Of a stretch of 64,000 nucleotides of DNA, positions 718 to 39,952 are shown in pieces. Position 1 is the first letter of the stretch. Every line of letters starts with the position of its first letter. The position numbers were made by a program, and so were the translations under genes. The notes under the pieces were generated by a model. It made no database searches, was not told the origin of the DNA, and saw only the letters and a list, made by a program, of their open reading frames with translations. This DNA is from Takakia lepidozioides (taxonomy: Eukaryota; Plantae; Bryophyta), in contig CM060734.1 of the NCBI GenBank assembly GCA_030704615.1, positions 8,742,001 through 8,806,000 on the forward strand, given 5' to 3'.

Positions 718-3700
718 CTAGTCGTTACCAGAATCCAAAGCTGCAATTGCAGCCCTTATCCCTTCTTCAGCATATTCAGGCAATTTGTAAACCGGATCAT
801 TCCCTACAACCCTGTAGTCGCATGGCAGCATAGGAAACTTGATGGCACGCACATGTTCAGAGTGCAGAAAGACCACTTGTGATTTTTTCAGAAATACATA
901 CATGTCTTCCGCTCTCCCCCACTTCTGGTAATACTTTCCTGCAATTACCATGTCTCCTTCTACAAACGAAGTGCCCCATGCATCAGTGAATGGCTTCTTC
1001 ACTGCATGGAGAGCCCGACTACAACAAATGATGTAAAAGTCTACTTGTTCATCATTGTTTTCCTCAGCATTGACTGCAAAATTGTCTCCAATTTCAATGA
1101 GGGATGCCAAATAATCACCATTGATGCCAAACTGGTCCCAATCCTCATCTGCATCTTTCTCCATGGCATGCCTGACATTTGCGGTGTTCTTCGGGGTCAA
1201 GATCTGCAACTCCCATTCACCAGTCCATGCAACATTCTCACAATTGTTCCATGCTGAGTCAATACAGAAACAACAGAAGCAAGCCAACCCTTTTATCATG
1301 AGTTTGTTAGTATCGCGACTGGCAACAGATTTGACTGAATGTAGTTTCTTGATTCCCTTGATAACATCACAGTCATGCAGTGAACAACGGTTGATATCCT
1401 CTTCCTTTACATCCCAGAAAACTCGACGAACATCAGATCTCTGCCAGTAGGAAGACTCTGGTCTTGAGGACAACCATTCTCTCAAAAATCTTACAACATC
1501 CTCTGCATTTTGCAGCTTCGGGCCTGAGACATCTAGTTGTGCAGTACGTAGGTATCTTTTGACAACTGCACCTGCTCCATCATGAGGGCCCTTGCCGTGC
1601 CCTGTACCAAAGAAGCTCCAAAGCAAAGTGCAACCCCCCGTGAGATGAGGGTACCTGCTGACAAAATACCATGGCCCTTTGGACTTGAATTTAGAAGAAC
1701 ACCCATCACTCCATATCCAATGTTGATGGACGAAACAAGGTAGTGGTCACACGCTGCCAATGCAACTGCAAGCAATGTTGAACAAAGTAGTTGTCATGTG
1801 TTTTGTCGTCCAAGATAAAGAAATGGTATTCCATCAAGCTATCAGAGCCAAGGCCACTCAAATTTCGGTTAGGATTTCGACGCCAGGTTATTAAGACCAA
1901 GATTGTAATCTGGTAAGAATGCCAGTGCATGCTTTGCACTTCATTCTGAATTTCAAAACTGTAATTTTCCGCAAAATCGACCACTGAAACCAACACGTCA
2001 GCAGGAAAATTCTTCAAGCACTCCTTGAACTGTCTGTCTTCCCACTGAGCAACAAAATTATGACGAATGAAGAACTGAAGTTTAGGCTTCAAATACCGAA
2101 TAAGCTCGTGAGGTGGAGTCCGCTTGTAGAGGAGGGTGAGTTTCTTTCTTTCTTCAAGTGGAGAGTTTATTTCAACGTAACGGACTTTCTACTGCTTTCC
2201 TATTACCAATGAACCCAGATGAGGTGGACATCACATCCAGACATGACCGCAACAGACTCATTCGGAGAGAGCTTATGGAATTACATGTCAAGAGAACTTG
2301 GATGCTATCCAATCTCACAACAAAGCTCCACTTCTATCGAGAGACATTCTTGGTGCTCCGCGATGATAGAATCTTGAGACCAAATTACCTTTCAGCACCC
2401 TTATCTCCTTCCCTCTTGAGGGCATTGGGGCGGTTCAGGGTGGGTTCCCACAACCTACGGATAGAGACTGGCAGATGGGAAAACCTGCAACGGGAGGACC
2501 GCCTATGTCCAGCTTGCATAGGGCGCAGCAAGGAAATTGAAACTGAAGAACACTTCTTCTTCTACTGCCCTCTATACTACGAGATCCGTGGGAGATTCCA
2601 CTGTTTATTCAGTGGAACCCAAACTCTCACTGATGTCTTTCACTATGAGGATCAAAAATGCTTGGCAGCCTACCTACACAAGGCCTTCACCCTTAGACAA
2701 TCGCTAGAACATTAATTGTGGTTTCTGGATTTGTTCCTCTCTCATGTTTTCTTCCATTTTGTCCCATAAGCTCTACGAGCTTTCCGCGGACGTTATAAAG
2801 CACCATTTCATTTCATTTCATTTCATTTCTTCTCCTTTCTTTGTCAAGATTGTTTGTAAAGAGAAGTGCCTCCACTGCACTAGGTGCTCTGATGAATCAT
2901 CATCCTCAAGAGGGCACAGAGATAGGTTTTCAACACCACAAGCTTGGCACTCTCCATACATGCACTCTTTCCTGTGCCAATCACTATACTCATCTTTTGG
3001 GCATACCACTGACTCCCACATATGAGTAACCCTTGAAAAAGTATATAGAGCACCTCTGCAGCCCTGTACAACATCCGGCTGACATATATATTCACATTCA
3101 CAATCACATGATCCATTACAATGGATACCTGACTTGGCTCGCATGTTGTTGAAGCCCACTCGCAACTCTTCCATTTCCACATGATAAATGCAGCAACACA
3201 CATTCCTGTTTTTCATTCTCTTTACAAAGAATGGTTTTAATGCATCAAATGACCGGCTTCCAATTATGATGTCAGGGTGTGCTCTTTGGAATCATAAAAA
3301 GAAATCCATCTGCACAAGAAAGGCACCTGTCAATCCCAAAATTTCATGAAAAACATTCTTACAACGAGCTAGCAGAGTATGAAACTGTATATGCACTAAG
3401 ACAGTATTGTCTACTAGTCCACAACATGTCCTACTATCCACAGAAGTCTATGGTGAGTCCATGAATAGCGGCATGGTCAGCGCAGAGTAACTCGCATGTC
3501 CACAAACCAGTCATTGTTTCCACAAGACTTCACAAATAATCCACAACATTCCGCTGCAATTGCAACCGACAAACAAATCATGGACTGGCACTCCACAACC
3601 TGACATTGAATCCAGGGGACTCCACATTCAACCCACAAGACTCCACAACCCCACATTCAATCCACAAGACTCCACATTTCCACTGTACCTTGCTATAGAG

Positions 3701-4573
3701 CTCATGGGATTCCATGGCATGTCAGTGTCAACCTCCGAGCATTCCATAAGAACATAGACAATTCAAAGACATTCCACATACAGTGAGAAGACATGTAGAG
3801 TTGTACCTGAGGCTCCATCAAGTAGTGTGTAGGCTTTACATCGTACTGAAACGCAGCGAGACGCTTCCGAGTGACATCTTTTGCATTAGGACTGACTCGT
3901 GTTTGGGACACCCACCAAGAGACCACAACATCCCTCGTTGCAACTGAAATTGTATCACGTCTCGTCTTCCTTATAGACAAACTCCACATGAATCCTTCGC
4001 GAGCAGATGCCATATCCTCGCGGCGTGCTACTGCCGCGCTTATATTATGGGGATGAACACCTAACAGAGATGCCGTAGATCTATACGAGGAACCACACCC
4101 ATTGTTAACCACTGCTGTTAGTAGCGCATGCTTGCTCGCTAATTTGCCTGCGGAGTTAGGGTTTTTAATCTCAGCCAGCGATTTTGTCAGTCCATTGATG
4201 ATCTGTTGTTGAGCAATAATGGTCTTTCCATCTTGCGAAGCAAGTGGCATCACAGGGATGAGTGAAGGGTGCGAAATGACCTTCTCCATGATGTGTCGTT
4301 TGCTTGAAGGTCCCGGGAACACTTTCAACGTGTTACAAATGCATGTCACAATCGTATGGCAGGCCCTTCTAATCTCTCGATCCCTTACAACTTCCTCCGT
4401 GTTTTGCTCTAAGTCACCTACAGTGTGCGAAACATTCTGGGCATGTGACTCTTTTTCCTCGCTCTAGATCGGCGGACGCGTTCAAGAACCTTATCTCTCA
4501 ATGCGCGTCTAGCCCTTTCTCTAGGCCCAGGTCTCGTGTGCGCACCGCCGCGTTGTGACCTGCCACTAGTCAT
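718..4573 (-). pseudogene. Sola-like (probably Sola2-type) DDD transposase, degraded; one intron (~3310-3806), interrupted by a LINE fragment
   Basis: Joined ORFs 4418-4600, 3702-4349, 2818-3309, 1706-2155 and 718-1730 give HPDIIIGSRSFDALKPFFVK..RNVCCCIYH, VVDFAENYSFEIQNEVQSMHW, IWSDGCSSKFK and FFGTGHGKGPHDGAGA (three acidic catalytic positions). One stop and frameshifts present. Family name recalled from motif pattern, not searched. Confidence 0.7.
2156..2825 (+). mobile_element. 5'-truncated LINE 3' end with C-terminal Zn-knuckle and (CATTT)n tail
   Basis: ORF 2158-2715 has RFRVGSHNLRIETGRW..RLCPAC..ETEEHFFFYCPLY; CATTT tail at ~2803-2825; 7-bp TSD TTTCTTC (2149-2155 / 2826-2832). Removing the insert restores the transposase frame (TKKGEERKKL). 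Confidence 0.9.
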
Positions 4574-5877
4574 GGCCGACTGAACTCTCCAAGCCTGCAC
4601 AAAGTGAAGAACTTAGAAAACATACAATGAAGGGACAAATTAGGTTTAAAACATTCTACACTACTTAGCAAACAATGCACGAACGAAGGTATTCAGTTTA
4701 GGGAGGGAAAGCATTTGTTGCAAGAGCTGAATGCCCGTGATAGCCAAATCTCAAGCCCATCATGTTGATGCGAATGAAAATGTCCATGCACAGGGCCATC
4801 TTGGAGAATCCACCAACCACCAACATGCAAGTAAATTTTAGGGTCTCCCCCACCAACTCTCACACACAACACCCAATCATCAAAAACTGAGCTCGTCATT
4901 TCCACACACACGGGCACCATCTGCATGCCCCATGGATGTATATATTTTGAAACGTTATGCAAAAGGATATCGCCAGGCATGGGGCCTGGTCTACGCAGAA
5001 CCACGACAAAGGCTCAACTACAAATGTCGGCTTGGAGTGGAAAGGCGTACTGGAATGAGAGCCACACACATTCAAACTATTCACTGCAAAGCTCAAAACT
5101 TCAAGTTCAACATCCTCAGAGCTTAGGTATTCGTAGTCACTACCATAGATTCTCATTGCAAATAACCACACAGCTCACCGAAACACAGAAGCGTCCACGA
5201 TTAGAGAAACGGGAAGACGACAGAGCAAGTGTGCGCGCAAATCGCGATAGGCAGCACATTTTCGAAATTGGGTTTTGCGCGAAATACGAAAAATAAAAAT
5301 ATAAAAATATAAAAATTGAAAACCGACACGTCATTGCCTATGTGGCATCTGTGTGTGTAGTTGTACTGCGGTTATTCAACAAACTAGTCCATTTGACACC
5401 TGGCACTTTTGGAATAGTTGATTCTACGCCTCTTTAGAAAAGGGTGATACACCAAAAAGCCACAAATGAAGATAGTATGGACTAGGCTAAATTGCCCTAT
5501 TTTTCAGGCATAAAAAAGTCCATAGCTATTAATTCCCGATGCTATTTGTCCATATGAAAATGGATTTGAGTTGGTTTAAAAAATGGCACCCCTAGGATGT
5601 TTTCCTTTACATCTTTGCATGAGTGTACATTGTGTTTATTTAGTCCATAACATTTTGTACTGTAACATCTGCAGTCCACAGTTTTCTACTTTGAAAGTCC
5701 ATAGCTCTCCATCAGTAGGTTTTTTTCTTAATCTAACAATTGGTACATATTTCTATGGTGGTTAAGAATCTTACACCATATAAAATTAGGTGAACTATTG
5801 AGTTGCTAAGAAATTATAAGTGAAACCATGGAGGGAGGTCACTGCAGAAACTGAGACACCCAATCCTGCAAATACTC

Positions 5878-5967
5878 TTCGGCACTGCGCAAACACACGA
5901 TTAATCCAATTTACCTCTCCCACTTTTATAAGCTAGCATGCATTCTACACACTAGCCAACCATACCA
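5878..5967. repeat. 90-bp filler nearly identical to 51775-51864 (chromovirus 3' non-coding region)
   Basis: Direct comparison: 89/90 identical (ttttata vs ttttgta). Confidence 0.9.
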
Positions 5968-5989
5968 GGGAGTTGAGGACGACGAGAGG

Positions 5990-8900
5990 GCCTCTCTGAC
6001 CAGGATGACATCCTCCCGGAGATCCCCAAACCCGGAGCATACAGGCTGGATTTGGTGGTCCTGGTGGGCTGCCGGAGAACCTCCCTGCAGCAGACGTCAT
6101 GTTGGAGGCCGATATGAAGTTGGCCACTGCCAAGATGTTGGAGGCAACCCATAGCAACATTGGCAGGGTCCTGGGAGGCATGGTCTACCCGGAAAAGCTT
6201 CGGATTCCTCTCTGCCGCTTGGTATCATTGTAGGTGGTCAGACCTGCCCTCCCAGGCGATATCGACAAGCTGAAATTCTCTTTCCGAGACGGATATCGAA
6301 TGGGGTCTGCCGCGTTTTATGTCTCGATTGAGAACGACCACGGAGCTTCTTGTGCCCACACTTCCGATGCAGTGGATAAATGGGGTCCCCATTGGCAAAG
6401 GCAAAATGAGGAGTTCAAGAGATTGATTGCTACTGATCCTCTTTTCCAGCACTTGTCCGGGAAGATGTTTTACGTGTGGGACGGCAACCATCGCCTCTTG
6501 GCATGGATGGAGCACATAGCCCAAGCCCACCCCAACAACCTAGATTGGCATTACGCCGTGGAGTGTGTTGTGCTGAAGGTTGCGGGGCCAAAGGATCGCA
6601 GTCTTCTCAAAGCTGCTATGGCAGACATCAACTCGTAAGTTACAATGTCTCTTGCACTGGAACTTTGAATCTGAAACACTCATTTCATTGCCAATCGTCA
6701 TATTTGTTGCAAATTCTCATTTCAGTATCGTTTAATGGAAATGTGACATTGCAGGGTGACTGAGAATGCCTTCATTGCCACCAACTTGTCCCACATGCTC
6801 TTCCGAGTGAAGGATGTCAGGAAGCAGGGGGTACAAGAGTTTGCCAATTCGCTCAGTGCCGACCTCCTTCGCAAGTCGGAGGCAAAGGCAAACAGACGCT
6901 GGTATAGGCTGAGCATGGATGCCATGGTGGACTACATATTTCGGGTACTGCGATGTGCTCTCTTCTTTTGTTGACATAATCAGTCTTTGCTCCCCCAATC
7001 GAAGAAAAAGTGTGGACCAGGATTTCTAATCTTATGTGCGCATTGTTGACAGATGAAAATTGAGCAGGATTTGGCACATGCGAGGAGGTTCTACATGGAG
7101 TCAGAGGAGAAGAATCTAACCCTCCCGGCACTGGAATCGTATCTCAAAGCTGCGGAGGCGAAGGCTCGCATCAAGTATAAGTCACAGATGGTGAAGTACG
7201 TGGCCATTGCTGATCCCGCCCTTGGTGCCGACTTTCTGGTGGAGGTGGGGAAGCACTACTCCCGCGCTCTTAAGCCCACGAAGACACTGGAGAAGTTGCA
7301 TCGTCTAGCCACAGCCTGTGTGGATGCAACAGAGAAGGTTATACATTCTTAACCAAATTCTCTTGTGGCAACAATCCGTTTTCATGGTGTCTTGCGCTTA
7401 CTAATATGCACGTTGATTGGACAGACCCGGTGGCTCCAAATCTGGAATGGGTCCCAGAGTACACAGGACATGCGGAGCTTCCCAAAACCCGACAAACTGT
7501 CCGACCCCACATTCGACATGTGGATGAACTGCATGACATGGTGGTTTCAGGTACTTTCCCACGCTTCATTTGGCGCTTCTACTCTTGTATCAGGTGGATT
7601 TCCTGTATTTCTTGAGGAATACTGTCTGATGGAGAATCTCCGCAGGTGACGACGAATGCGCAAGAGCAGCTTGACACCCAAGCACATCAGTTCAAGCTAG
7701 AGATTGTAGGAGAAGCAGAGAGCCTCCGCGACTATGTGACGAGATACTTTCTGCTGTACAAAACCGACCTGTTCTTTCGAATGATACCGCATGCCCGGAG
7801 GAGCCACGAGTTCACCGACCAGCCGAACGCAGACAAAGCGGCAATGCGCCTTCTGTACAGGTAAATATGCGGTGCTCCTCTTTGATCTGTGGCCATTGTA
7901 GTCCCTAGAGTTCCTGGATGTAAAACGCCTAATGTGGGGCAGACAATTCGTTGTGAAGAAATGGCTAAGTCCCTGGGGTGGCTGCCCCCGAGACTGGGAA
8001 AATGGCGCCAAATTTCTTGTCTCGGTGGAAGCCACCCCAGGGACTAGCATTTGGAAGCCTCGAATCTGGAAATTCGGCGCCATTTTCCCAGCTTGGGGCC
8101 CAAAATGGCTAAGTCCAATGAGGGGCTGGCCCCGATACAGGAAAAAGGCGCCGAATTTGCAGTTTCGGTGCCATCCACCCTGGGGACTTAGCCATTTTAT
8201 GGCCCCGGAACTGGAAATTCGGCGCCATTTTTCCAAGTTGGGCCCAAAAATGGCCAATACCAAAAGAAGATGGCCCCCAACCTGGAAAAATGGTGCCGAA
8301 TTTCCAGTATTGGTGCCAGCCACCCCAGGGACTTAGCCATTTCCGGGGCCCGGAACTGGAAGTTCGGCGCCATTTTTCCAGGTTGGATCCCAAAGTGGCT
8401 AAGACCCAGAAGGGGCTGGGGCCCAACTTGGAAAAATGACGCCGAATTTCCAGTTTCGGTGCCAGCCACCCCAGGGACTTAGCCATTTCTGGGGCCTGGA
8501 ACTGGAAAAAATTTCCAGGTTGGGCCCCAAAGTGGCCAAGTCCCAGAAGGGGCTGGGGCCCAACCTGGAAAAATGGCGCCGAATTTCCAGTTTTGGTGCC
8601 TGCCACCCCAGGGACTTAGCCATTTCTGGGGCCCGGAACTGGAAATTTGGCGCCATTTTTCCAGGTTGGGCCCCAAAGTGGCTAAGTCCCAGAAGGGGCT
8701 GCCTCGCCCACGGGAAAAATGGCGCCGAATTTCTAGTTTCGTTGCCCGGCACCCTGGGGAGCCGGGAGCAGCGCCCCCCCCCCCCCCCGCATGGAAATTC
8801 GGCGCCATTTTTACAGTTTCTTGCCGAAACATTAACCTCATTCCCGGGACCTGATTCTCTGTGGGTTTCTTGAATGCAGGTACTGCAAGTTCTCCCTATT

Positions 8901-11180
8901 GGAGAAAGGTCATCTGTCCTTCGAGCCTCCATTCTTCCTCGCATGGCGGAACCCTGGCGCTGACTCCATGTACACTGACGTTATGGTGAAGGAGTGGCAT
9001 CTGAAGCATTTGCGCGACTGCCCTTGGTATGTGGACCTTCCGCCCGGCTCACTCGACGCCTCGAAGTTTCAATTGAAGCTGGATGCTGAGGCCTGCCGAA
9101 ACTGGGCTACACTGCCTCCGCTAGGTCCAAAGGAGGCGAAAGCGCTTGCCAAGTCCAGGAAAGCGGCAAAGCTTGCTCAGGCAGGTATTTAGGAGAAGTT
9201 GAATGAGAAGAAAAAAGGGTTGAAGAAAAGGACACGGAAACAGGGGACTGCAGTAACCCCAAAAAAACAGAAAACCAGCGGGGCGCGAGAGGAGGCGTAG
9301 GAGGGGCCCGAAGGGAGTGACTCGGACGACGACTTTGTACAAGGTCCTGCCCTAGCTACTGCTACCAAGTCACCGGTAGTCCGGGTTCCCAAGTCAGTTC
9401 GGACTGGGACTGGCTCTGCCAAGCAGTTGGCGTTTGAGGGGGAGCCTACACGGCGGCATTCGGCGGTGACGTTTCCCGACGGGCCAAAGCTAGAACCCCC
9501 AACAATCATCCAATGCATCAATGAGAGCTTCCTTGACGCTCTGGCTGCCAGGGCGAAGAAGGTGGCACACAACAAGTCTCTGGAGGAGCTGAAGGGGAAA
9601 GCGAAGAAGAGGGCTGTTGCTGCAGAGCCTAAAGACACCCCTGGTTTGGAAGCCATGATGGAATTCTTCACGGCTGTGAGCACGGATTGTAAGAGCACTC
9701 GGGGGGGGGGGGGGGGGGGGGGGTGGGTTGAGGTGGAGAGAGCCTGTGATATGATTCTCCTCGATATTCCAGATGGGGAGCTGCTGGAGGGCCTGGATGG
9801 TGTGCCTACCTCGAACAAGTTTACTGAGGACTACTGGAGAGCCAGGTTTGGGCTGGCGGGGATGCTCCTGGATGACGGTGGATGTATGGTGGTCCTTGCC
9901 ACAAGAGGGAAGACGACAAAGATTGTTGTGGCAAGGTGGACACCAAAAAGTGCCACCCCGGTCCTCCTCAATAAATGGTTATGCATCAACAGGCAGGGGT
10001 TGCAAACAGAGGGCCAAAGTGTAAGTTATCAATCTATTGCTTTCACTTCATATCGTGGTGTATCTAAACTAGAGCTTGGAGTTGATCCCTCTTTTCTTGG
10101 ATGTGCTGACATTGATGTTTGAGGCATATTGTTTTGTGAAGAGAGGGTCTACGTTCAAATTCCGCAATGATGGTCGTCTTGTTGATGCTGTTGTGGACCC
10201 TCTTACCTACGATGTCTTCTACAACTATGTGCCCCACTCCAGTATGCCAAAGGACACAAAGACAGGCAAACCGTGGCGGTACAGCCGGACCCAGAGCCCT
10301 GCTTTCATCCAAACCCTCATGGAGACGTGCTCCGATGTCCAAAGGCGGATTCTTGACCTCACATGTGGCACGGGTAAGCCTTCACATGCACAGTATGTCC
10401 CGTGGCCCAATTACAATTGCATGCCGCATGCTACTAACCGCCTGCTTTGTCCCTCAGGTGCTTCAATGTGGGCTGGGACATTGTCTGACATGCATGTCTT
10501 TGCCTTCGAGCCAGATACTGCCCTCCACAACTCAGAACTAGCAGTGGCTGAACATTTGCCGAAAGAGGAAGAGGCATCCTCGGAGGATAAGGAAGAATCC
10601 GAGAAGGAGCAGGGGGAGGTACAAGTTGGGATCGAGGCCGAGGAGCCCCCAGTTTACGAGTGAGTGGTCGCATTGTAAGTTGCCTCCTGATTTTGTGAGG
10701 CACCTCCCTTTGCTCTCTTATTTCATTGGCCGACCTTTTCTGCTTCTGCTGGTATTGACATTCTTGAAGTGGATTTGTTCTTACTATAGGATGCCAAGTA
10801 CTGCAAGAGGGACGTCTACACCGCAGTTCATGGGTAGGAGGAACGTGCCTTTTTTTGCCAAGGGGGATTTCATGCCGAGTCCAAAAAGGGACTACCTCAG
10901 GAAAATAAAGATGAGGGAGGAGGCAACAGCTATTAGAGCTCGTCAGGCTCGTAGATTTGTCTTGGATTCTGCTGAGGAAAATGAGGAGAAGAGGCAGAAG
11001 ATTCCCAGGAGGTGAGGTGGACAGTCCCCCAAGGAGAGGACGGTATTTTTGAGAGGCATGGTGGAACTTATGCATCTCAGAGCTCAGAGGATGAGGGGGA
11101 TGAGAGGGATGAGGAGGAAGGTGGGGCAAGTTCCTCGGAGGGTGTAGGAGAGTAGTACCCATTCCGGCTATGACAGTTAG
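5990..11180 (+). pseudogene. ParB/Srx-like + DNA amino-methyltransferase-like fusion gene, copy 1 (~9 exons, several in-frame stops)
   Basis: Inferred exons ~5990-6634, 6755-6944, 7053-7337, 7425-7550, 7646-7860, 8880-10020, 10124-10373, 10458-~10659, 10790-11180 with GT-AG ends. Motifs: KLRIPLCRLVSL*VVRP, FYVWDGNHRL, ILLDIPDG (9763-9777), RTQSPAFIQTLMETCSDVQRRILDLTCGTG/ASMWAG..HVFAFEPD. Confidence 0.8.
7962..8815. repeat. Intronic array of ~11 alternately inverted GAAATTCGGCGCCATTTT motifs (~72-bp spacing, ~145-bp unit)
   Basis: GGCGCC-type cores at 8004, 8076, 8147, 8221, 8292, 8366, 8438, 8575, 8649, 8721, 8801, all inside intron 7861-8879. Confidence 0.9.
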
Positions 11181-14025
11181 GACACACTTGTATAGATGTG
11201 GCTTGCCACAAAATTTGCAATAAAATGTTGCATTTCATTGCTATGACGAGTCCAATGGTGCCACATTCCAACTTTAAATGACCCTATTACCGTGCCTCCT
11301 AACCCTATTTCCGTGGACACACAATTGTCCGCTCATGTTTTTTTTTTTTTCCGCTCATGCTCATGCCGCTCATGAAATAGCAGCCCCCCACCCACGCGTG
11401 CTGGACATTATGACAGATCTAGGATACCCCATTGATTCTATTCAACTTATTGGCAATATTTACACTAACAGTACCACCAAATACTCTAGCTCCTACTACG
11501 GCCCCACCCCCCCTATGCCCATATTGCGTGGTACCATTCAAGGTGACACACTGAGCCCATATCTATTTATTATTTTTCTTCAACCTCTGGTGCGATGGCT
11601 TGCTCGCGGCAACCTCGGATACCAGTACAAAACTTCTTCCAATGAAATCTCTGCAGCAGCCTATTCGGACGACCTAGCCATTCTTGCACACAAACCTCAA
11701 CACCTCAACTGACAGGTTGACAAACTATTCCGCTTCAACCAGTGGTCAGGGATGGAACTAAGCCTACACAAATGTGCGGTCACCGCTGCTACACACCAAA
11801 GCAAATTCTCAAAATCCACGATAGCCTCCCACTGCAAGCTATACATACACTATCAACAAAAACCATTCCCCTTCTTTAGCCCCAAGCGAACCCTATACTT
11901 ACTTAGGCATACAATTGGTTTCCTCGCTCACATGGCATATACAGAAGAGCACAACCCTATCCATATTAACCAACAAGAGCTTAGCCTTACTCAAATCTCC
12001 GATCTCCATCCGCCCTAAATTAGCTATCATCCAAAAAGTCCTCAATCCACAAGTCCAATACGCATTTCATGCGGCCCCCTTCTCTTTATCTGACATTAGA
12101 CTACTTGACAAAAACATTATTCAGCTCACCAAACGCATTTGTGGTCTACCTATTAGTACCCCAAATGCTCTCACTCAGCTCCCACAAGATAGTTATGGGA
12201 GAGGATCTAGCCCCCTGATTACATCATATGCCCGCACCCTTGGCTCATAACTCCTCGAGGCCCTCAACGACCCTAGGGCTATTTTTAGAGGACTCCTTAA
12301 ACACTTGGCCCATAAATATAATGGACTGTACTCCCTCCCCTCTCTCCACCCTCAATCCTGCCTTCACTCCCCTACCGCTCGCACATTGTTCATCTTACGC
12401 CAAATGAGAATCAGCATACAAACTGACCTCCCGGGCTACCCCAACTCCATATCACCACTTGAACGCGCGTGGCTCAACAGCCCATTCCTCACACAATTTG
12501 AAACTTTATACCCCCGTCAAAGAAAACTTATCCTTGCCTACTTCAAAGCACGCCATATTACTAATCTCACCCAGCTCACTACAGCCACTGGGAACCGACT
12601 GCTAACTCCATGCCAATTTACCTTGAAACATTCTCGTGCTACTATCAAAACACGCAGATATCTGCTTCACCTTTGTTCCCTATTCTGTCACCCAACTATC
12701 TCTTGTACCCTTGATTGTGACCTCCCCTACTCACTTTTTCCCCACAACCAACAAGATTTCATCCCAGAATTCCGTTCTGCCCCAACCGCCTCTATACTCC
12801 AACAGCTTAAAGCCTCCCAATATACTCCTGCTCGACCTTCCCAGGACTCCTCTCCCTTCTCCTCACCCACATCCCCTCCCCCAACGTCGCAACTAGTTGC
12901 CAATACAAATATTATCCTCTCGACTCCCCACTAGTAGCTACCCCTCCTCACCCAACCAGCCCTGACCATCCCGAGGCCTTCATCATTGAGGCCATCCTTG
13001 GCATCAAAACCCAAACCTCACTCGATGCATTTGGCGCTACTGGTGTTGATACATACTACCTTTGTAAATGGGCAGGCTTTTCTACAGAAGACAACACGTG
13101 GCAAATCGAAGAAGACCTCTTTGGGCCTACGAAGACTGCGATCCCGCCCATAACCGTGATCTTCTAATCAAATTCCACAAACAAACTAACACCAAATATC
13201 TAGCACACACCCACCAACACCACTCCTCCCAAACCCAATTGATAGACGCCCGCTACATCCACACCTCCCTAGCTGCCCAAAATCTGCATATACAAACCAC
13301 CGAATGTAACCCAGACAAAGACATTGCGCATGATTCCCCCATCATATGCCCTAGTCCTAGTATGTCCAATATATACACACTCAGCGGCAGTTTTGCCGGG
13401 TCAATTTCCAACATCAGTCTTGCCTGGCTCTGGTCTCAATATTCCACTTCCACCCCTCATACTACCCCATTACAACCGCCAAAGCAAGACTTTGCCACGG
13501 AGGTCTGCTAGCTTATATTAGGCCGGTACCTTCGCGACACCCCCCCCCCCCAAAAAAAACCCCGCACTCTCGATAAACTAGCACTTGCATATACTCATAG
13601 CACCATCCCACTAGACATCCTCAAACTTCTCATCACCACATTTCAGCTTACACACTCCTTCTATTCTAGCCCCTCACGTGCCCCCTTGAGCTTTCCTCCT
13701 ATGATAGCCCGCATCCCAGAGACTGTGTACTAGGAGCCCTTGGTTCCGCTATCCAACACACTTGGTCCGGAGGTGGCCTCGCGCACCCACCACCCGGGCT
13801 CCTCACCCATGAGGCTCTACAATGGGCGCGCCTCACCGCCCATTCATCCCCCTCCGCCATCACTATCCTTATTCTCACTCACAAAGCTTACCTAATCACC
13901 AACACCACCTTCTCCAACTCCCCCCTGAGGTGACGCCACTAGCCGCCATTGAATCCAACCATCTCCGCTACAGGCGCACCCTGCCCTTCCCCAAATATCT
14001 CCGCCACAAATAACCCATTCTAACC

Positions 14026-14964
14026 TGTTAGAGGGCTGCTTGGGACTTAGACGCTTTTATGGGTTCTGTGGGGTACCCTTAATTTTTGCGCAGACTGAGA
14101 CCAACAGGAGTCTTAGGGGTGGTAGGAGCAAGCTTTAGGGGGGTTACACAGCCCGACACAGCTTCACACAGCTTTACACAGCCAGTCACAGCCTGACACA
14201 GCTTCACATAGCCCGACACAGCTTCGCACAGCCAGTCACAGCCCGACACAGCTTCACACAGCCCGACACAACTTCGCATAGCCAGTCCCAGCCCGACATA
14301 GCTTTACACAGCCAGTCACAGCTCGGCACAGCTTGACACAGCCTGTCACAGTACATGGGGAACAGTTATCATTGACAGGGAACGACATCTGCATAGGGAC
14401 CGTGTTACTTTAGGGATGACGGTTAGTTAGTTAGGTGGTTAGAACAGTTTGCGGGTAAATTAGGAGAGCGGCAACGGGAAGGGGATCACTTCGAGGAGAG
14501 GGCGACTTGTTCAGGAGAGGAGGAGACGTAACGGAGAGCGGGGAAACAGTGTAGAGGAGATGATGACTTGAATGAGGCTTAGTTCATGCAAGCTGTAGAA
14601 TTATACAGTAGGATAGAATAGAGACACCATGGCATAGGCATGAAACATGACTAATCTTAATCCGATACTGAATCGATACAAACATAGTGTGTACAGAGAC
14701 ACGAGAGAAGCTGTGGAATGAATGCATGATTAACTGGAACTTAGTAGATACTGAAGCAATCTGATGCTTCAGTATACACGGTAAGGTAAATTGATAACAT
14801 GAAGGCAAGAAGGAATACAAATAGGAAGCACAACCATGATTCACTAGCTACAGGTCATGACTGATTGTTCTGAGCGGGCTGAGTGCTTAGAGATATCCAA
14901 CTCTTCTATCTTGGAGTTTCCACCTCGGATAGCGAAGGGATGGGTGAGTAAAAGCCGCTCGACA
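14026..14964. mobile_element. Solo LTR (939 bp) inserted in the LINE
   Basis: TGTT...GACA ends; perfect 5-bp TSD TAACC (14021-14025 / 14965-14969). Confidence 0.9.
14146..14351. repeat. 10-bp minisatellite (ACACAGCYNN-type) inside the solo LTR
   Basis: About 20 units such as acacagcccg / acacagcttc / tcacagcctg. Confidence 0.9.
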
Positions 14965-16179: not shown

Positions 16180-18587
16180 GTCATGACGATAGTGTGCATG
16201 ACGATCCAGAGATCAGTGAGGAGCTTGGTGGTGCTAATGATGTGCATGAAGATGCAGCAATGTTGGCCTACCTGAACGTACTGGAGAGACAGCAGCCAGT
16301 GTGACTGCTAAGGAGAGAGATCGGATCCTACAACGGGCCAAGAGGTTCAAGTGGGAGGGGACTCACCTACTCCGGGTATGGGAGGATGGACGAGTGAGGA
16401 TTGTGCCTCATCCAACACAACGAGCGTGATTGGTATGTCATGCCCATGAGGAGTTGGGACATTTTGGCGTGCGGCGCACTGATAGTTTGCTGCAAGGGCA
16501 GTACTAGTGGCGGGGCATGCACACGGATGTGCAGCACTTAGTGGCAAGGTGCATGGTGTGTGATAGGGTGCATGCTTCCTTCAATGCACCTACTCCACAA
16601 TTGCATCCTTTACCCATTATGGATTTGGGCTATCGTTGGAGTCTTGACTTCATAGGCCCATTGTCACCGACGATTTGCCATAACAAGTATGTGCTGGTGA
16701 TGGTGGAACTCTTCTCCAAATGGATTGCACGGGTGGTATTGCCTGACAAGGCTAGTGAGGGGGCTGCGTATGCATTCTTGGATCGTGTTCTTAGCCGATT
16801 TGGTGCTCCAGCCGAGGTACTCACGGACCAGGGGAGAGAGTTATTGGGAGAGTTTCAGGCTTTGTGTGAGCAAGTCTTGATAGATCACCGCACTATTTCT
16901 CGGGATCATCCCGAGGCTGATGGCTTGGCGGAGAGAGTTGTTCAGACAGTCAAGAGAGGTTTGCGCAAGTACGGTTTGCAGAAGGGACACATAGGAGATT
17001 GAGACCTTTAGCTGCCTTGGTTGGCTATGGACTATAGGTTCAGCAAACAAGTGTCACTTGCCTCATTCTCACCTTACTTTCTTCTTTTCGGCCGAGAGCC
17101 AGATTTGCCTGCATCTATTCGCAGGGAAGCTGCAGTAGTCCTCAACCTTCATGATCCGGAGATGTGGACACAAACATGTGACCAGTGGGCAGAGTTGTTC
17201 AAGAGAGTCATGCCTATGGCTTTTGAAAACCTTGCTATTGCCCAATACCGAGACACATTGAGGTATGCTACTATAGGGTCGTTGCAGCCTATAGTGTCCA
17301 TTTTTTGCTGTCGCAGCACAGTTTTTCCTTCACATAGACTGATGGTATACATTCACACTCTTCAATCGAATGGAATATTTGAATAAAAGACTCTAAAGGA
17401 TAATATGCACTAAAGGCTTCACCCACTCTTTCAAGTTTCATTTCAACATACTAAGTATATTAAAAGCTAATGACTTCTTAAAAAGTCCTTAGTAAAAAGT
17501 CGTAGTCCATAATCTGATGATTATGTACTTTGTTCTTGGTCATTTTCAATGCCACTATAAAAAATGACTCACATTATGATCACCCCCATTTTGAGGAATC
17601 TATAATGCCTTATCTTACACTAAAATATGTAGTCCATAAAATGTTAGGGACTTTTGAAGAGCATAAAAATCAGTTATTTTTGTATTAAGCTTTACTACAT
17701 GAAAAACATAGATTTACAAGAACTGCCTTCACAAAAAACACGCATTTCCCATAGGTTGAGGGCATAGATGAATAATTTGAGAATTTCGTTTTTTTTTTTT
17801 TAATTTTTTTTTAAAAGCCCGCCCATATTTTTTTGACACGGTACTTTTGGCCGACGGTCTAGATCGACTTCATCCGACGGTCCAAAATTTTATTTTTCAA
17901 AACTCGCACCAGCTTAAGGACATCTCATGTACTCGTGATCGTGTCGCATTATGGACACTCTAGGCTGCAATCACCTTATACATGGAGGAGGGTATCGACC
18001 GGGGGTTCGGAGATTCAGCCCTGGGGACTATGTGTATGTGCAGTAGACAGCACCTGCGATCTTGGACGTCATAGCAGGGCATGTGATTCTATGAGTACGG
18101 GAGGTGTTGCCTTTGGGAGTGTTGATTCTGGAGGGTCGAGATGGCATGGTATGGAAGAACCATGTGCGCAATTGTGCGCCATGTCACCTTCCACATGTGG
18201 ATGGGAGGGTAGATCCCAACCGTGCAGTGGTCCCTGCAGGGTTGCGTTGCATGTTATGCGGGCATGAGGTTCCTAATGGAGAATGGTTGCGTCCACAATG
18301 TCTTTGACAAAGGTAGCCTGACATGGCAATGGTGAGGCTGACAAGTGATCCAAGGTCTAGCTAGTGGGGCTTCAATGCCATGGATACTCAACTAAAGATC
18401 ATGGATTGCAGGAAGACGAATAACGATGGTGCTACTTACCTGACCTCTTGATCTATCGACTTCAGATGCTGGGACTTGTGCGATTGAAGACCAAACGATG
18501 ATTTTATTGGGGTGGATACTTATGAGCTATCCGGTGTTAGAGGGACCTAATCACTAGCTAGGGGGGCGATTGTGGCATAGCTTTTTA
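16180..18587 (+). mobile_element. Ty3/gypsy remnant A1: integrase (HHCC, core, partly deleted PHD), PPT and start of 85-bp terminal unit X (continues at 30202-30277)
   Basis: HEELGHFG..CMVCDRV, WSLDFIGP, VLTDQGRE, DGLAERVVQT; PPT GGGGGGCGAT 18561-18570, then TGTGGC; closely similar to 41824-43317. Confidence 0.9.
17276..17976. mobile_element. Non-autonomous TIR element (MITE-like, 701 bp), possibly Sola-type
   Basis: 26-bp imperfect TIR GGGTCGTTGCAGCCTATAGTGTCCAT / (rc) AGGTGATTGCAGCCTAGAGTGTCCAT; 4-bp TSD TATA; the empty site is visible in the paralog (gccactatacatgg at ~42552). Confidence 0.88.
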
Positions 18588-19270
18588 GGGGGGTGCTATT
18601 CCGTGAGCCTGGAGGCGTGAGCCTGTGAGCCCAGGAAACCGTGAGCCCAGCACAGGCTCACGCCACGTCAGCATACATACAGGGCCTATTTCCGCGGGTG
18701 TCACCTATTTCCGCGGGTTGATCAGCCATTTCCCGGGAATCCATAGTGGATACGTTACATCCATTGTATCCATTGCATCCATGCAGACGTTATCAACATA
18801 CCAAGCCCTCACAAGTTTATGTGGGTACGTCGTGAGGAGGTGCACACTGACATGATCTAAAGAGGAACCTTGCGAAATCTTTTCTTACTCACCACCCTTG
18901 CGAACATGCCAGGTATGTGCGGGACATCATGGATGCTCATTAGATTTGAGAATGCCTCATAGCTCTTTGATGAGGTGGACTTCACCGTGATGGATTCACC
19001 AACCATTCTTCTAGTAGGAATGGTTTGGAGACCAACGACCACGAACCAAAGTCGTTTGTTTGTTTTTGCAATGCACTCAAGTCTGTGAGGTCCAGAAAAC
19101 ACTAAATAGATTGAAGGAACAATCCGGGCAGTCCATGCAACCCCCATCTCCAACAATAGTTTGTTCCCATTAATGTGCATTCCACGCACACATTGCAAAC
19201 AGGACAACAAGGACACACAACCATCCCATTTCAAATTTGGCCCCGAATAAAACCAAAAGAAAACTTCATA

Positions 19271-22200
19271 TCAAGTGTCACAGTCATCAGAATCAGTCTC
19301 GACCTCCTGTGCTATGTCATCCACAAAGATTTTGGCCCCAACACCACGTCTTCTACCACGGCCGTCGATGGGTGGACTCCGAGTGCCATGAACGGTCATG
19401 CTTGTTGCGAGTGCCTCTGCATAGACAGGTAGCACGCAAGACCAAGGAGGACTGGAAAGAAGTCCAAATAGGTGTGATAGCCGTGGAGGGCAAGTGGAAG
19501 CACGCGGACTCCTGCACATGTCGACAAAAACCCATTCAGAACACAATATGCAATACACAAGTCCAACGAAGAGGATGTCTGCCATGTGAACTTTGCCTCA
19601 AGAAGAGTGATTCTCGATATTGAAACAACAATGCAAGCATCCACAGGTTGAACTTACTCACAGGCAAAGTCGGAGTCCAGCTCCTTGTCGGAAGTCTCCT
19701 CTGTATCAATATCAGCGGGACGGGGCTTCGGAAGGACTTGAGAAGTGTGTCCACCCAAACCCATCAGGAGGTTCTTGTAAATCTCAGCATCCCCTTCAAT
19801 CCCAAAGAGATGTCGGGCACTGGCCTTGCAAGCGTGGTACGAAGCACCTGCAGTGGAATAGAATGAAGGAAGCAGACATTGAAGACACATATGGAACGGT
19901 GGGAAGTACTGAAAGTGCAAGCTCAATCAAACCAAGAGACAAACCTGTGCCCATTGACAAATCCAGAACTCTGGCGTCTGTGTAGGTGCAGCACTCCACA
20001 ATCGTTTGAATGAAAGTCGGGCTCCTCTCCCTCGCCCCTCTCCAAGGAACCTCATTCCCCCTTCGCAAGCAGACGTTGTTGTCGACGTAGTTGTGGTGCA
20101 TGTCATCCATGGGAGGATCTGTCCTGTCGTCTATGAACTTGCCCCCATGAGTGATGGCGAACTCCGAAATGTCGGCCGGAGTCGTTGGTGGATGCACTCG
20201 GACGAGACAAAACAGCTTCAAACAAACGAGTCTGCGAACAACACATCCAGAAGGAACTAAGAAGCTTCAAAAATCAGGACCCTACATATGAGTTCGAGCG
20301 ACCTACACAACTCCATCCGAGAACCACCAAGAAGAGGAAGAAGAAGGCAAATTTACCATCTCTCCCGGACGATCCCCCTTCGTAAGGTACATGCTGTTCA
20401 CACAATTCCATGTCTTCAGGACTCTCATGCCCGAGGCTTTCAAATAGCTGGCAAGTGCACGGCGACAGCGAATGTCGGCGGACTGTATGAGCACCAAAAC
20501 ACCTGCATCGGACAGGAAAAAATTGCAAAAGGAGAAAACCCACCGCCAGTAGCGCTCATCAAAAGCATTCCAACCCGGACAAGCACCCGATGGAGGGACA
20601 TCCGGGACTGCCAACCCATCAGGGATGTCCAAGATTATGAATTCGGCTGCATATTGCTTCTCCTTCCCGTTCACCCAGGATTTGGTCATTTTAGCCTGCA
20701 AACAAAATTACAATGGAATACTCAAGAGGATTGAAACGATCCATGCCCACTGCAGAGAAGAAGCAAAAGAGAACACGCACCGTGCCGAGGAACTCTACAA
20801 TCCTCTCCCACACTGGTGATGGCTCGCCCTTGTAATCAGATTTCTTGGACTCCATCATGGCAAGGAATCCGACGTTGGCCATCTCCAACCTGGTAGGGCG
20901 AATGATCCTCGTCGGATGTTCCACTGCATGGTACGGGTCCTTGGGATCAACCACCCCCTTGTTCTTTCTCACGGATCCCCTACCATGCGGTGGAGTCTGC
21001 TGGACATGCACCACTGGGCCAATATCTGCAACACTTCCCTGCCCTTGTGCCACCTTCCCTCTACCCCTTCCTTTCCCTACAACACCAGCAACATCTTTTC
21101 CCTTTGCCTTTCTACCTCTACCCGGGGTATCCTGAGCGGGAGGCTCCTTCTCTGCAAGAGTCCTCCAATTTCATTCATGAATGTTGAGGTCGGCTGCTGC
21201 GGCAGTGGCTGCAATTCGCTCATTCTCTCTCCTCAAAGACACCTCCGGAGCTGGGGTCTCAGAAGGAGGGCAATCCAAATACCAACCACAAGAAGAAAGA
21301 TGGTCTGGGCCCCAGTCATGCAAGATCCCAGTAGTAAACATGGTCTGATTGCCAGCAGGTCCACGAAATCTGGATGTTTGTCCAAGCAATTCTCTTCCAT
21401 GAGAACAAACTTTATGTACCTGCAGGAATAGAGACAGCCTCATTATGCAATGCAATTATTGTCTCTCAGCTTTTCCATCACACCAGGAAGACCCCCTTAA
21501 ACTGTATGCGTCACAGTACATTGCAACCACAGCACACTAAGTAGCCTGAACGGCCCAGGGTGTGCACCTGTAAAGGCATCGTTTCCAGGCTTCCTCTCCT
21601 TTTTCTTGCTGGTCAAGGTCATGTGTTCGACTGATGTCACCCTCCTTGCTGAACTCTCTAAAGAAACAAGAGTGCCACACTGTGGCTCTCCATTTCCTCA
21701 TGTATGCTTCGAAGGAGACCTTCGGTGCTGTCATAGTGATGCCATAGTCAGCCAGCTGAGTATGCAGAACCGACCGTGCCCTTTCTTCCAACTGCAAAAC
21801 AATTCAAATGCAAGAATGAACCAAAAAAAATCATAGCGAATGTGAGAGGCAATGGAAAGAGAAGGACAGGAAAAGAGAAAAGAAAGTGACACAGGAAAGG
21901 ACATCACACCTGGCTCCAGTAAGTGGCCTTGTGAAGCCATGTGTCCAGCACATTGTCACTGACAGGAATGACACGCTGGGTCTTCTTCTCTTTCTCCGGC
22001 CTGGGGAACATGTGGGTATCCCTAACTGTGGGATCGGAGTTCCATATCTGTAGCCACTTCACCTTCTGTTCTGAAGACACAACGGCGTCAGACAACCTGT
22101 GTAACTTCTCCTGGGCCATCTCTAGCTTGCCTGGCTTGTTATAATGGTTTTTTTTATCTCCAGGAGAAACTGCGATCCGAATGATGGGTCGGCAATTCTC

Positions 22201-25200
22201 AACCGCTTCACAAAAGCACTCATTATAGTCCTTCTTGTAGCGGTCATCTCTTTTTGGATGTGACTCTCAACCCCCTTTGCTGTCCTTCTCTCCTCAGGGG
22301 TTGACCTGTAGTATTCCAGTTTGCCACGCTCCCCTGCATCTGCAATGTCTTGCTGCAAGGGAATGCACGAGAGTTGCATCAACCCAAGGGCAAGGGAAAC
22401 AAACAGAAACAAACATGTGGAAGCAGGAATATGGAAAGGGCAGATGAAGGAAGATGTATCTCACCGTGTACATGTACTCCATGAAAGCCTCACGTGTCAA
22501 CGAGTACCACGTTTCCGATGTCTTGGAGCTTTCGCACTTCTTGTACGTCTCTGCTGAAAGGATGGTCTTGAAGTTGGTCAAGGGCATCTGCCCAATCCTT
22601 TGTATCCTATACAGTGTGTGAACCAGACTCGTTTTGACATGCGATGTCTCCGTTCCTCTGCAGAATGATTTCTGAAAGTCAGAATGAAATTCAAGGACTT
22701 TAATCAAAGAACCACGGAACTACAAGTGGAACATGTAGAATGAGAAACCAACCTGTTCACATCATTCATTGCCATCAGAAGACCCATCATGTTCCCCTCA
22801 CAATCCAGCACCATCGATCGAACAGAGTAATGCCACTCTTCCTCCCGTGAGTGCAGCCTCCCAATAACAGCCATCCATGCAAGCAACCGGTGGTTCCCAT
22901 CCCAAACGTGAAACATCTTCCCCGAGAATGCCTGGGTGGAAGGTTTCCTGGAGAGAAGAAGTTCGAAGGATTCGTTCACCTGTCTCCAAATAGGATCCCA
23001 GGAGTCCACGATTGACTCATCCACAAGGAGCTCATTGCCTGTGGAATCCTTTGTACAAACGTAATCTATCCAAATACCCATGAACAAAGCCTCTAGCTTG
23101 AGAATGTCCTTGATGAGGGGTGGTCGAACAACGGGCATGGAAACCATCCTACACAGGGGAATCTTACTTTGCACCACAAGCTGAGAGTTTACCTTCTGAC
23201 CCCCCAGCATCTCAGCGGCTTTGCTTTCATAGAACTCATCGTCAACATCAACAATGATCTCCTTCCCCAGCCCCGAAGGGATCTCCTCCGCCACACTTTG
23301 CATCTTCTCCTGCAGGGTTGTCCATTCAAATTGATATAAGAGTGAGGCATGAGACGATGGTGTTTGAGCATGGGAGACAGGCCATGTGTGGAAGAAAAGG
23401 TGAGCTCAAACAGTGTGCGTTGACGCACACTGTTTGAGCTGCAAGGTAAGTGTTCATTGAACCTCAAAGACATGCCACGTAAGTGTTCATTGAACCTCAA
23501 TGAGAAGCCCTTAGTGGCCGATTTTCAGATGAAAAAAAAAGAAAAAGTGAGCTCAAACAGTGTGCGTTGACGCACACTATTTGGGCTGCAAGGTAAGTGT
23601 TCAGTGAACCTCAGAGACATGCCATGTAAGTGTTCATTGAACCTCAGAGACATGTCAGGTAAGTGTTCATTGAACCTCAAAGAGAAGCCCTTAGTGGCCG
23701 ATTTTCAGATGACAAAGGCAATGACAAGGTGAGCTCAAACAGTGTGCGTTGACGCACACTGTTTGAGCTGCCAGGTAAGTGTTCATTGAACCTCCGAGAC
23801 ATGCCCAATATTGCCGAATTTCATAGGGGAAAAATAGTGACAAGGTGTGCTCAAACAGTGTGCGGCAACGCACACTGTTTGAGCTGCCAGGTAAGTGATG
23901 ATTGATCCTCAAATACAAACCCTATGTGGCCGATTTTTAGATGACAAAGGCAATGACATGGTGAGCTCAAATAGTGTGCGTTGACGCACACTGTTTGAGC
24001 TCACCAGGTAAGTGTTCATTGAACCTCCGAGACATGCCCTGTATTGCCGAATTTCACAGGGGAAAAATAGTGACAAGGTGTGCTCAAACAGTGTGCGGCA
24101 ACGCACACTGTTTGAGCTGCCAGGTAAGTCATGATTGATCCTCAAATACAAACCCTATGTGGCCGATTTTCAGATGACAAAGGCAATGACAAGGTGAGCT
24201 CAAACAGTGTGCGTTGACGCACACTGTTTGAGCTGCCAGGTAAGTGTTCATTGAACCTCAGAGACATGCCATGTATTGCCGAATTTCACAGGGAAAAAAC
24301 AGTGACAAGGTGTGCTCAAACAGTGTGCGGCAACTCACACTGTTTGAGCTCCCAAATAAGTGTTCATCGATCCTCAGAGACATGCCCTATGTGGCCGATT
24401 TTCAAATGAAAAAGGCAATGATAAGGGTAGCTCAAACAGTGTGCGCCAACGCACACTGTTTGAGCTGCCAGGTAAGTGATGATTGATCCTCAAATTCATA
24501 CCCTATGTGGCCGATTTTCAGATGACAAAGGCAATGACAATGTGAGCTCAAACAGTTTGCATTGACGCACACTGTTTGAGCTGCCATGTAAGTGATGATT
24601 GATCCTCAAATACATGCCGTTTGTGGCCGTTTTTCAAATGAAAAAACAATGACAAGGTGGGCTCAAACAGTGGAGAATTGAACTGGGCATAGTGGCCCTA
24701 TCTGGCCGTTTTTCACACTATCAACCAAGTAAAATGCGGGGCTCAAACAGTGTGCGTCAACGCACACTGTTTCAGCATCCAATTCGTGGTGGATTTAACC
24801 TGCCGTAGTTCCCCAATTTGGCCGTTTCGCACATCAACAAGCCAGCAAAATGGAAGGCTCAAACAGTGTGCGTCAACGCACACTGTTTGAGCTTCTTGTT
24901 TGCGGTTGATGCAACTTGGCAGAGATGTCGTGTGTAGACTATGTTCATATCGAAATAGAATCTCAACTTGGGTTCACATCAGCAATGAAGCACAAAGGTG
25001 GGTTTCAAAGATTGAACCTTTTTTTTGGCTGCTCCAGAAGACTCCCCAATCGCCGGGGACCCTTTGCGCTTCGGACTGCTCTCCACGCCTCGCATGTTCT
25101 GGAGCATCTCCCCCATCCTCTCTTCCACTATTAGGTTCTTTGTGAGGCCAGCGTCAACATCATCTTCGGCGTCTGCCTCTCCCTCGGATGCAGTGTCCTC

Positions 25201-25480
25201 CTCATTTGTTCTTGGAACTATGGCAGGCTGCTGTTCTTCTCCGGATTCCTGCTCTTCCATCGCCGAACTTTGCTCTTTGCCCTCTTCTTCCGCCTTTTCC
25301 TCTTCGGCCACTCTTTCCATCCTCATTCTATATCTGGCTCTATTCCTGTTTCTAGAGCTCGTGAAGTATAATGACTTCCTTCTCTTCCTCCTCCGCTGGA
25401 AACAAGGGCTCCCCACGATGCCTCTAGAGCTCTCCAGTTTGACGTTTGCAACAAGGGTTGCTATTGCATGTAACCAAAAT
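19271..25480 (-). pseudogene. ParB/Srx-like + DNA amino-methyltransferase-like fusion gene, copy 2 (multi-exon; 5' acidic exon tentative)
   Basis: KIPLCRMVSMPVVRP and FHVWDGNHRL (22704-23303); HTLYRI; IADPSFGSQFL; KWLQIWN; IILDIPDG (~20615-20629); RERSPTFIQTIVECCTYTDARVLDLSMGTG/ASYHACKASARHLFGIEGD. Several intron positions match copy 1. Exon ~25020-25480 could splice in phase 0 to 23309. Confidence 0.78.
23402..24893. repeat. Array of ~13 copies of a 38-bp palindrome AGCTCAAACAGTGTGCGT-TG-ACGCACACTGTTTGAGCT, ~116-bp period (232-bp higher order)
   Basis: Copies start at 23403, 23550, 23732, 23848, 23964, 24081, 24197, 24313, 24429, 24545, 24660 (half), 24740, 24857. Confidence 0.95.
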
Positions 25481-28833: not shown

Positions 28834-29151
28834 GCGGCACAAATCTGCTGGAGAAGCAGGTCCTATAGGCGAGGATTGCAAGAAGAGGGCCTATTACCGT
28901 GGACAAAACAAAGGGGGCCACCATGCACCATGTCTGCAATGCCTGCACAAAAAGAGGAATATGAAAATATGGCAGAATTGAGCTCAGAATGATTGACACA
29001 CTTTATTTCAATTCACAGATAGACGCTTACAATGAATGGCATGTACATTTGCCCTGGTTCCGTGAACGAAATGTATGTGTTGTCCTAAATGCAAAGTCTT
29101 CACACGGTAACCTAGAAACCAGCATGGAAAGCGGGCATGGCTCGTATGTGT

Positions 29152-30160: not shown

Positions 30161-30201
30161 TCCCAGGCTCACGGGGCTGGGCTCACGCCGTAGCTACGCT
30201 G

Positions 30202-39716: not shown

Positions 39717-39856
39717 AAGTTGTTTCAAAGAAGGGATAGAGAGAGATAGAATAGTCTGGCATCATTATGTATTAGTCGTATAGTGCTGTCCCCAACGAAT
39801 GAACCTTAGAACTAATTGATCCTCTTTTAGGATTGATTCTAGTTTTATTCTACAAC

Positions 39857-39878: not shown

Positions 39879-39952
39879 AAGACGATGCGGTTTGCTATAG
39901 TGATGCTTTACTAAAATTTCAAGATAATTACTTTCTGTAGAGGAATTACGAG

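Follow-up and report, generated by a model that had tools for sequence, protein, structure and literature searches.

What is a gene that joins a ParB-like domain to a methyltransferase domain doing, three times over, in 64,000 nt of the moss Takakia lepidozioides? The stretch in question (GCA_030704615.1, contig CM060734.1, positions 8,742,001-8,806,000 of the forward strand) is hereafter called the window, and all coordinates are relative to it. A translated search with the first copy places the gene at 6060-10659 (+), 23306-19658 (-) and 64000-60546 (-), the third running off the window end at 64000. That it is an old accessory gene of a transposon is well supported, and it is a land-plant variant, belonging to Mutator-like elements (MULEs), of a kind already published for a brown-algal Sola1 element. 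We give about an even chance to a fuller reading, namely that it is an old, intron-bearing second gene of land-plant Mutator-like transposons, the protein of which binds to parS-like palindromes of the element that encodes it and counters silencing.

Exon borders were set on GT..AG junctions, and the spliced models were then aligned. As modelled, copy 1 opens with an exon for the ParB-like domain (6060-6634), which includes VWDGNHR, passes through a middle region (6755-6944, 7053-7337, 7425-7550 and 7646-7860), and continues into a charged linker and beta-class methyltransferase domain (8880-10020, 10109-10373 and 10458-10659) holding motif IV, DIPDG, and motif I, DLTCGTG; 10790-11155 holds a frameshifted tail exon, in which PFFA and RWTVPQGEDGIFE blocks occur. 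Homology to the family starts near 5970-5995, copy 1 being truncated on its 5' side at a 90 bp filler (5878-5967, +) from a long terminal repeat (LTR)-like sequence, with 98.9% identity to 51775-51864; loose contig ends fall at 5878, 5967 and 5995, and depth is low upstream. Copy 2 (19272-23306, -) comprises eight exons (23306-22753, 22657-22465, 22352-21910, 21791-21568, 21419-20781, 20695-20357, 20231-19945 and 19847-19658) and a tail exon from 19511. Copy 3, also on the reverse strand, was modelled as 64000-63744, 63573-63384, 63296-63012, 62926-62807, 62724-62510, 62286-61149, approximately 61120-60883 and 60761-60546, with a tail to around 59925. An earlier note on this DNA had described three diverged copies, and this is borne out by protein identities of 32-48% (34.1% between copies 1 and 2, 47.5% between 1 and 3, and 31.6% between 2 and 3). 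The protein blocks it listed, VWDGNH, HxLxR, I.DP.xG..FL, WLQIW and R..SPxFIQT, are each found in all three copies, and RWTVPxGEDGIFE in copies 1 and 3, as well as in a deleted derivative at around 49450. It was also right that each copy carries stops or indels: three stops in copy 1 (6231, 9190 and 9298), one stop (around 21173) and three frameshifts in copy 2, and four stops and one frameshift within the modelled part of copy 3.

Five introns are found at the same aligned codon and in the same phase, with intact ends, in all three copies; these are the three positions already named in the earlier note, after DIN/DVN (phase 2), after LYR/LFR (phase 2) and inside xTG (phase 1), and two more in phase 0. 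A sixth shared position is damaged, the acceptor of copy 1 reading TG and copy 3 having neither the acceptor nor around eight codons. Because a further two introns are not common to all copies, that before TRWLQIW being restricted to copies 1 and 3 and that after EFLGT to copy 2, the exon-intron structure is similar across the copies rather than the same, as had been claimed. The intron sequences are alike no more than expected by chance, with none of 14 pairs having fewer than seven of 200 shuffles that score as high.

Support for the predicted junctions comes from X6 and X7, two sequencing runs with the same species label, from two studies, which are guessed to be RNA; a search of sequencing runs listed no match recorded as RNA. 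Contigs of relatives, rather than of the window copies, splice at four predicted introns: in the copy-1 family an X7 contig skips the 95 nt intron 4 (7551-7645) and an X6 contig the 1019 nt intron 5, both with GT..AG ends, and an X6 contig joins 10020 to 10109 exactly, whilst for the copy-2 family a 95 nt skip at intron 1 (22656-22752) appears in X6 and X7 alike. In one X6 contig poly-A follows 11241, as a loose end. Related loci bear on the history of these introns. L006, a decayed locus of 35% GC, has junctions at introns 1, 4 and 5 and is without intron 3, and L002 and L004 resemble copy 2 in that an intron precedes the motif IV exon; judging from these junctions, copy 2 probably keeps the older layout, with one intron gained and another lost, again probably, in the copy-1/3 lineage.

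Some further observations concern unusual joins and the ends of the gene. A copy-2-family contig found in both X6 and X7 (19710-23013) connects exon 2 with the motif I exon through just 217 letters and leaves out 2256 nt, motif IV among them; it is either a splice form or a transcribed internal deletion, observed in both studies. In copies 1 and 3 (10655-10800 and 60550-60420) a TGA is followed 11 nt on by GTAAGT, with a second possible donor just 5' of the stop, and X6 skips around 110 nt here; it may be that the conserved tail is spliced in as an alternative exon, or that it forms a small frame of its own. The acidic tail of copy 2 resembles those of some proteins from the liverwort Riccia, and an acidic 166-codon frame upstream of the repeat array of copy 2 (24979-25479, -) is possibly a 5' exon of the copy-2 gene.

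The proposal that the gene is old, intronised and under purifying selection stands up well. Over 680-752 aligned codons, with the linker and acidic tail excluded, the proportion of differing synonymous sites (pS) is 0.74-0.76 across copy pairs, which is saturated, and that of nonsynonymous sites (pN) is 0.34-0.48; fourfold sites are 29-33% identical, third codon positions 34-39% and second positions 55-71%. The ratio of nonsynonymous to synonymous rates (dN/dS), which the earlier note had suggested computing between subfamilies, is around 0.14 where it can be computed and not near 1 (0.14 for copies 1 and 3, 0.13 for copies 2 and 3, undefined for copies 1 and 2), although these values are rough because dS is saturated. 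Bootstrap intervals of pN/pS span 0.42-0.70, all below 1, whether in the ParB, the middle or the methylase part, and dN/dS for the methylase region of copies 1 and 3 is 0.16. Between copy 1 and the X6 and X7 exon-1 contigs, seven of the 17 listed differences are synonymous and ten are not, a contrast that does not bear on recent selection (p = 0.11).

A search with the ParB exon returned 355 clusters at 50% identity, and 72 of the 93 hits that reach the intron-1 site end no more than 25 residues from it, as expected of exon-1 reading frames. Named homologues occur in Riccia sorocarpa, including a full protein of 1207 aa, and in the ferns Adiantum nelumboides and A. capillus-veneris. No relatives of the ParB exon were found in phage records, and none of 64 candidates from prokaryote species genomes was confirmed; for the Riccia methylase domain there were 48 matching phage records, none better than E 0.01, and a PDB sequence search gave no significant match. 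With homologues in Riccia and Adiantum and no prokaryotic match for the ParB exon among phage records or species genomes, the gene is not a bacterial contaminant, as the earlier note had held. The family is also very abundant: in the DNA run X1, which may be the source sample, 15,062 contigs map to the region, with a summed depth of around 1-4.5 x 10^5 over the gene exons against 162 at 5300-5505, a depth that is not a copy number. A quick, midpoint-rooted tree of the ParB part (146 columns and 82 rows, hits covering fewer than 105 residues being excluded), which gives no dates, makes copies 1 and 3 sisters (98), gives copy 2 no firm place and has the Riccia and Adiantum rows grouping apart.

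That the gene is cargo of a mobile element is shown in L003 and L004 as well as for copy 2, which sits with a transposase in a complete Mutator-like element of 11.6 kb (18590-30201), itself inside a Gypsy-type repeat. An exact 10 bp target duplication (18580-18589 and 30202-30211) flanks the element, and a paralogous Gypsy-type repeat at 42926-43649 represents its empty site; target duplications of Mutator-like elements are around 9-11 bp long. As candidate terminal inverted repeats it has only short, imperfect ones of around 65 bp. Head-to-head with copy 2 lies a broken MULE-type DDE transposase (26453-28830, +), the top Atlas hit of which is a MULE cluster (0.96) and which is 35% identical to the transposase beside the gene in L003 and L004, whilst Pfam gave no direct MULE match for it. 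The SWIM-finger part of the transposase (29155-30168, -) scores E=0.041, below the Pfam cut-off. L003 and L004, plant-like metagenome contig DNA that look like one locus sampled twice, hold the gene, transposase and SWIM part in plain order, with gene and transposase again head-to-head; there the SWIM part is on the same strand as the transposase, and in the copy-2 element the SWIM-bearing end (28840-30170) is inverted. The same terminal motif lies downstream of all three copies. The end of the copy 1 element (11340-11388, -) has TGAGC subterminal repeats and terminal GGGGGCTGCTATTTCATGAGC, with an 89% identical end at 49360-49827, and that downstream of copy 3 (57519-57580, +) combines the motif with CATGAGCC repeats. 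A 1.6 kb non-autonomous derivative of the copy-1 family (48246-49827) retains the two ends together with part of the array and the tail exon.

Structure prediction for exon 1 of copy 2 yields a ParB fold with a predicted local distance difference test score (pLDDT) of 91; the top 14 of the 33 listed structure entries are ParB, Noc, KorB or PadC, the best having a Z of 8.3 and a root mean square deviation of 2.4 A over 91 residues (Foldseek E 0.013). Exon 1 is thereby predicted to carry the ParB N-terminal fold of the ParB/Srx superfamily. The GxxR nucleotide-binding motif reads DGNHR in copies 1 and 2 and DGNHE in copy 3, and the N and H of this region are present in at least 90% of 65 aligned rows.

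In the C-terminal domain motif IV precedes motif I, which is the beta-class order. The 1207 aa Riccia homologue matches Pfam N6_N4_Mtase at E=5e-5, just under the cut-off, the methylase domain has an Atlas score of 0.95, and copy 1 aligns to the Riccia profile with 91.5% probability; CcrM is the top Foldseek match of the methylase model, which gives weak support only, the model being poor (pLDDT 41). Searched with Pfam, 12 exon pieces from the window matched no ParB or methylase family. The C-terminus is predicted to be a beta-class amino-methyltransferase with a PF01555-like fold. Motif IV reads DIPDG, DIPDG and DILDG in the window copies and starts with Asp in all 28 sequences in which it is seen (three from the window, 20 from Riccia, three from Adiantum, L002 and L004), and its aromatic fourth residue is missing in 26, including all three window copies, being kept in two fern proteins (DVPFG and DLPFG). 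The catalytic motif [DNS]PP[YFW] is absent from the window copies, each of which also lacks the usual Phe of motif I. Motif IV, which starts with Asp, is thus not the SPPY of the known plant and rotifer N4-cytosine methyltransferases. By the motif rules, Asp at this position points to adenine rather than cytosine, and as both it and the S-adenosylmethionine (SAM)-binding motif are kept, any mark is more likely to be on N6-adenine than on N4-cytosine. Catalysis itself is doubtful, as motif IV lacks the aromatic residue, and we would lean against the methylase being active in the transposon ParB-methylase family of the window.

All three elements hold non-coding repeat arrays. Intron 5 of copy 1 contains a 146 bp tandem array (7962-8754) with GGCGCC-centred imperfect palindromes; a 116 bp tandem array between copy 2 and its transposase (23400-24900) has palindromes of up to 38 bp and nine AAA(A/T)TCGGC half-sites; and 67 bp repeats downstream of copy 3 (59371-59676) have a perfect 16-18 bp palindrome, ATTTCGGCGCCGAAAT, further sites for which lie in introns at 62365, 62432 and 63697. 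The GGCGCC-centred palindrome is common to copies 1 and 3, in units of unrelated length, and 19 of the 20 GGCGCC sites of the window fall in the copy-1, derivative and copy-3 elements; TTYGGCGCCRAA has 11 matches against 0.55 expected. L004 and L002 each have five occurrences of the palindrome or its C-to-T decay forms, a pattern drawn after L004 had been seen, where 0.07 would be expected; these sites lie upstream of the gene and within an intron. One viral contig matched the palindrome, with no related gene in the 3 kb available. A palindrome that recurs across hosts beside a ParB-fold gene looks as a parS-like site would, from which we infer binding.

ParB proteins undergo CTP-dependent clamping and spreading. 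By analogy, the ParB part of the transposon protein would dock on the palindromes of its own element as candidate parS-like sites, where a dimer would load and then probably clamp and spread as ParB does with CTP. The protein would act in trans on copies sharing the site, non-autonomous ones included, and when bound would keep the element from silencing, much as VANC does; the methylase part would add an N6-adenine mark if active, and would otherwise be a dead DNA- or SAM-binding module. An extended version, in which an ancient and very abundant Mutator class of seed-free land plants has co-opted a bacterial ParB/parS-type system, with a CTP-type clamp that loads at a palindrome kept across plant lineages and spreads along the element, and with an adenine mark, self-written by a methyltransferase whose active site is non-canonical, set against 5-methylcytosine (5mC) silencing, we consider unlikely.

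Several points weigh against the protein being an anti-silencing factor of this type. The helix-turn-helix with which ParB binds DNA was not found, the middle region lying outside the folded part, and the loss of the motif IV aromatic residue has been described above. The long palindrome of copy 2 is not the one found in copies 1 and 3, and the half-site alone is common to them. The observed/expected ratio of CpG is 0.52-0.73 inside the elements against 0.38-0.77 in neighbouring retroelements, a depletion so similar that it gives no sign of lasting protection from 5mC. None of the copies seen is intact, all three in the window being broken and an X6 exon-1 contig having its own stop. Copy 1 being truncated at its 5' end and copy 3 lying at the window end, their transposase partners are out of view; part of the X6 and X7 contigs are unspliced, and the RNA nature of these runs is a guess.

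One alternative is an active enzyme that marks DNA in or close to the palindromes with N6-methyladenine (N4-methylcytosine being the less likely product), a mark that might itself regulate transposase expression or end recognition; the invariant Asp, the retention of motif I, a methylase region as constrained as the rest of the protein and the aromatic residue in two fern proteins favour this, but the loss of that residue elsewhere and of the motif I Phe do not, and in the available text on the rotifer enzyme N4CMT, replacement of Ser and Tyr in SPPY abolished activity (PMC8885841), such that a self-marking role is possible but rather doubtful. ParB proteins not only spread on DNA but bridge it, and the ParB part could serve the mechanics of transposition instead of silencing, coating or bridging the element ends and helping the transposase to pair them. 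In favour of this are the length of the element, 11.6 kb, with its short, imperfect inverted repeats, and a derivative that retains palindromes along with both ends; however, the arrays are in introns or between genes rather than at the ends, which carry the different TGAGC motif, making this quite unlikely. Passive carriage of a captured gene, as in a Pack-MULE, or an incidental pairing with the MULE, would account for every copy seen being broken and for copy 1 abutting a different, low-copy transposase gene via filler DNA. This is very improbable given that the protein is conserved whilst synonymous sites are saturated, dN/dS well below 1 largely refuting it, and that there are 355 clusters and an identical pairing in another genome. 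The earlier rejection of a one-off capture is upheld as regards a one-off dead passenger, and does not extend to a single ancestral capture.

The accessory gene of a Mutator-like element has its closest described counterpart in Ectocarpus, where Sola1-1_Ec32 carries a gene with ParB-like and N4C/N6A methyltransferase domains, proposed in the available text to bind and modify its own element (PMC12477816). Both encode two-domain proteins, of around 1100 aa in the alga, transcribed opposite to the transposase; the window family differs in its land-plant host and Mutator-type transposase, the proteins being compared by description only, with no algal sequence among the named records that the homologue searches returned, and adds introns, selection, palindromes and a degenerate motif IV. 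In red algae, going by the accessible part of the Bostrychia preprint, the Plavaka genes PAG2 and PAG3 include a ParB-like PAG3 beside tandem arrays of inverted repeats, with a PF01555 methylase in the same cassette, which is mobile between transposon families; there two genes pair ParB with a 2OG oxygenase and the methylase with a SET domain, whereas in the window ParB and methylase form one gene (bioRxiv 10.1101/2025.02.11.637652). VANC of Arabidopsis, as far as the source consulted goes, binds short motifs that are tandemly repeated in the non-coding DNA of VANDAL elements, and likewise combines an accessory gene with motif repeats, which sit in introns and intergenic DNA and vary from family to family; its function has been demonstrated, its motifs are not palindromes, and no sequence link joins it to the window protein (PMC5735166).

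Prokaryote-type permuted (beta-class) amino-methyltransferases are also known as eukaryotic host genes. In the parts of these papers that were available, MpDN4MT1a/b of Marchantia, with a (T)SPPY motif (bioRxiv 10.1101/2021.02.12.428880), and rotifer N4CMT, with SPPY (PMC8885841), have demonstrated N4-methylcytosine (4mC) activity, whilst the window family is transposon-borne and has D-x-P-x-G; the term 'ParB' does not occur in the accessible portion of the Marchantia preprint. Adenine methylases that carry a fused helix-turn-helix of ParB type are reported from chlorophytes and chytrids, with few such enzymes in land plants, in the accessible sections of a further study (PMC4738411). No literature was found that describes a gene of this type from Mutator elements of land plants, subscription journals being thinly covered. 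The self-targeting role of the algal ParB-methylase genes is a proposal, at least in the text available (PMC12477816; bioRxiv 10.1101/2025.02.11.637652), and the moss elements offer a testable land-plant case, with a candidate site kept between hosts, proteins and arrays that differ by subfamily, transcripts that are spliced, and sequenced liverwort and fern genomes that contain homologues. If the enzyme is active, plant DNA would have a transposon-borne source of N6-methyladenine (6mA) or 4mC, and the ParB clamp a use in eukaryotes; the gene is also a record of introns gained and lost within a transposon.

The window has some further features. A broken transposase-like gene at 718-4463 (-) has the motifs DFAENY, SDGCSSKFKS and TGHGKGPHDG, and ten relatives of 614-658 aa without a Pfam family, and contains a LINE-like fragment at around 2190-2810; it may be Sola-like. 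Its inclusion in the copy 1 element finds no support, there being no matching ends, LTR filler at the junction and a roughly thousandfold lower X1 depth at 5300-5505. A 183-codon open frame without a Pfam match lies between the copy 3 palindromes and the element end (58537-59088, -). Amid repeats at 45690-47590 (+) is a host Yippee-like gene, the last exon of which matches Pfam at E=1.7e-9; an inverted repeat of around 100 bp, 84% alike and 11 kb apart (39783-39881 and 50810-50909), surrounds this gene and Gypsy pieces. A 10 bp CACAG-type tandem array is found at 14146-14351, and degenerate repeats of 100-400 bp at 33600-36200.

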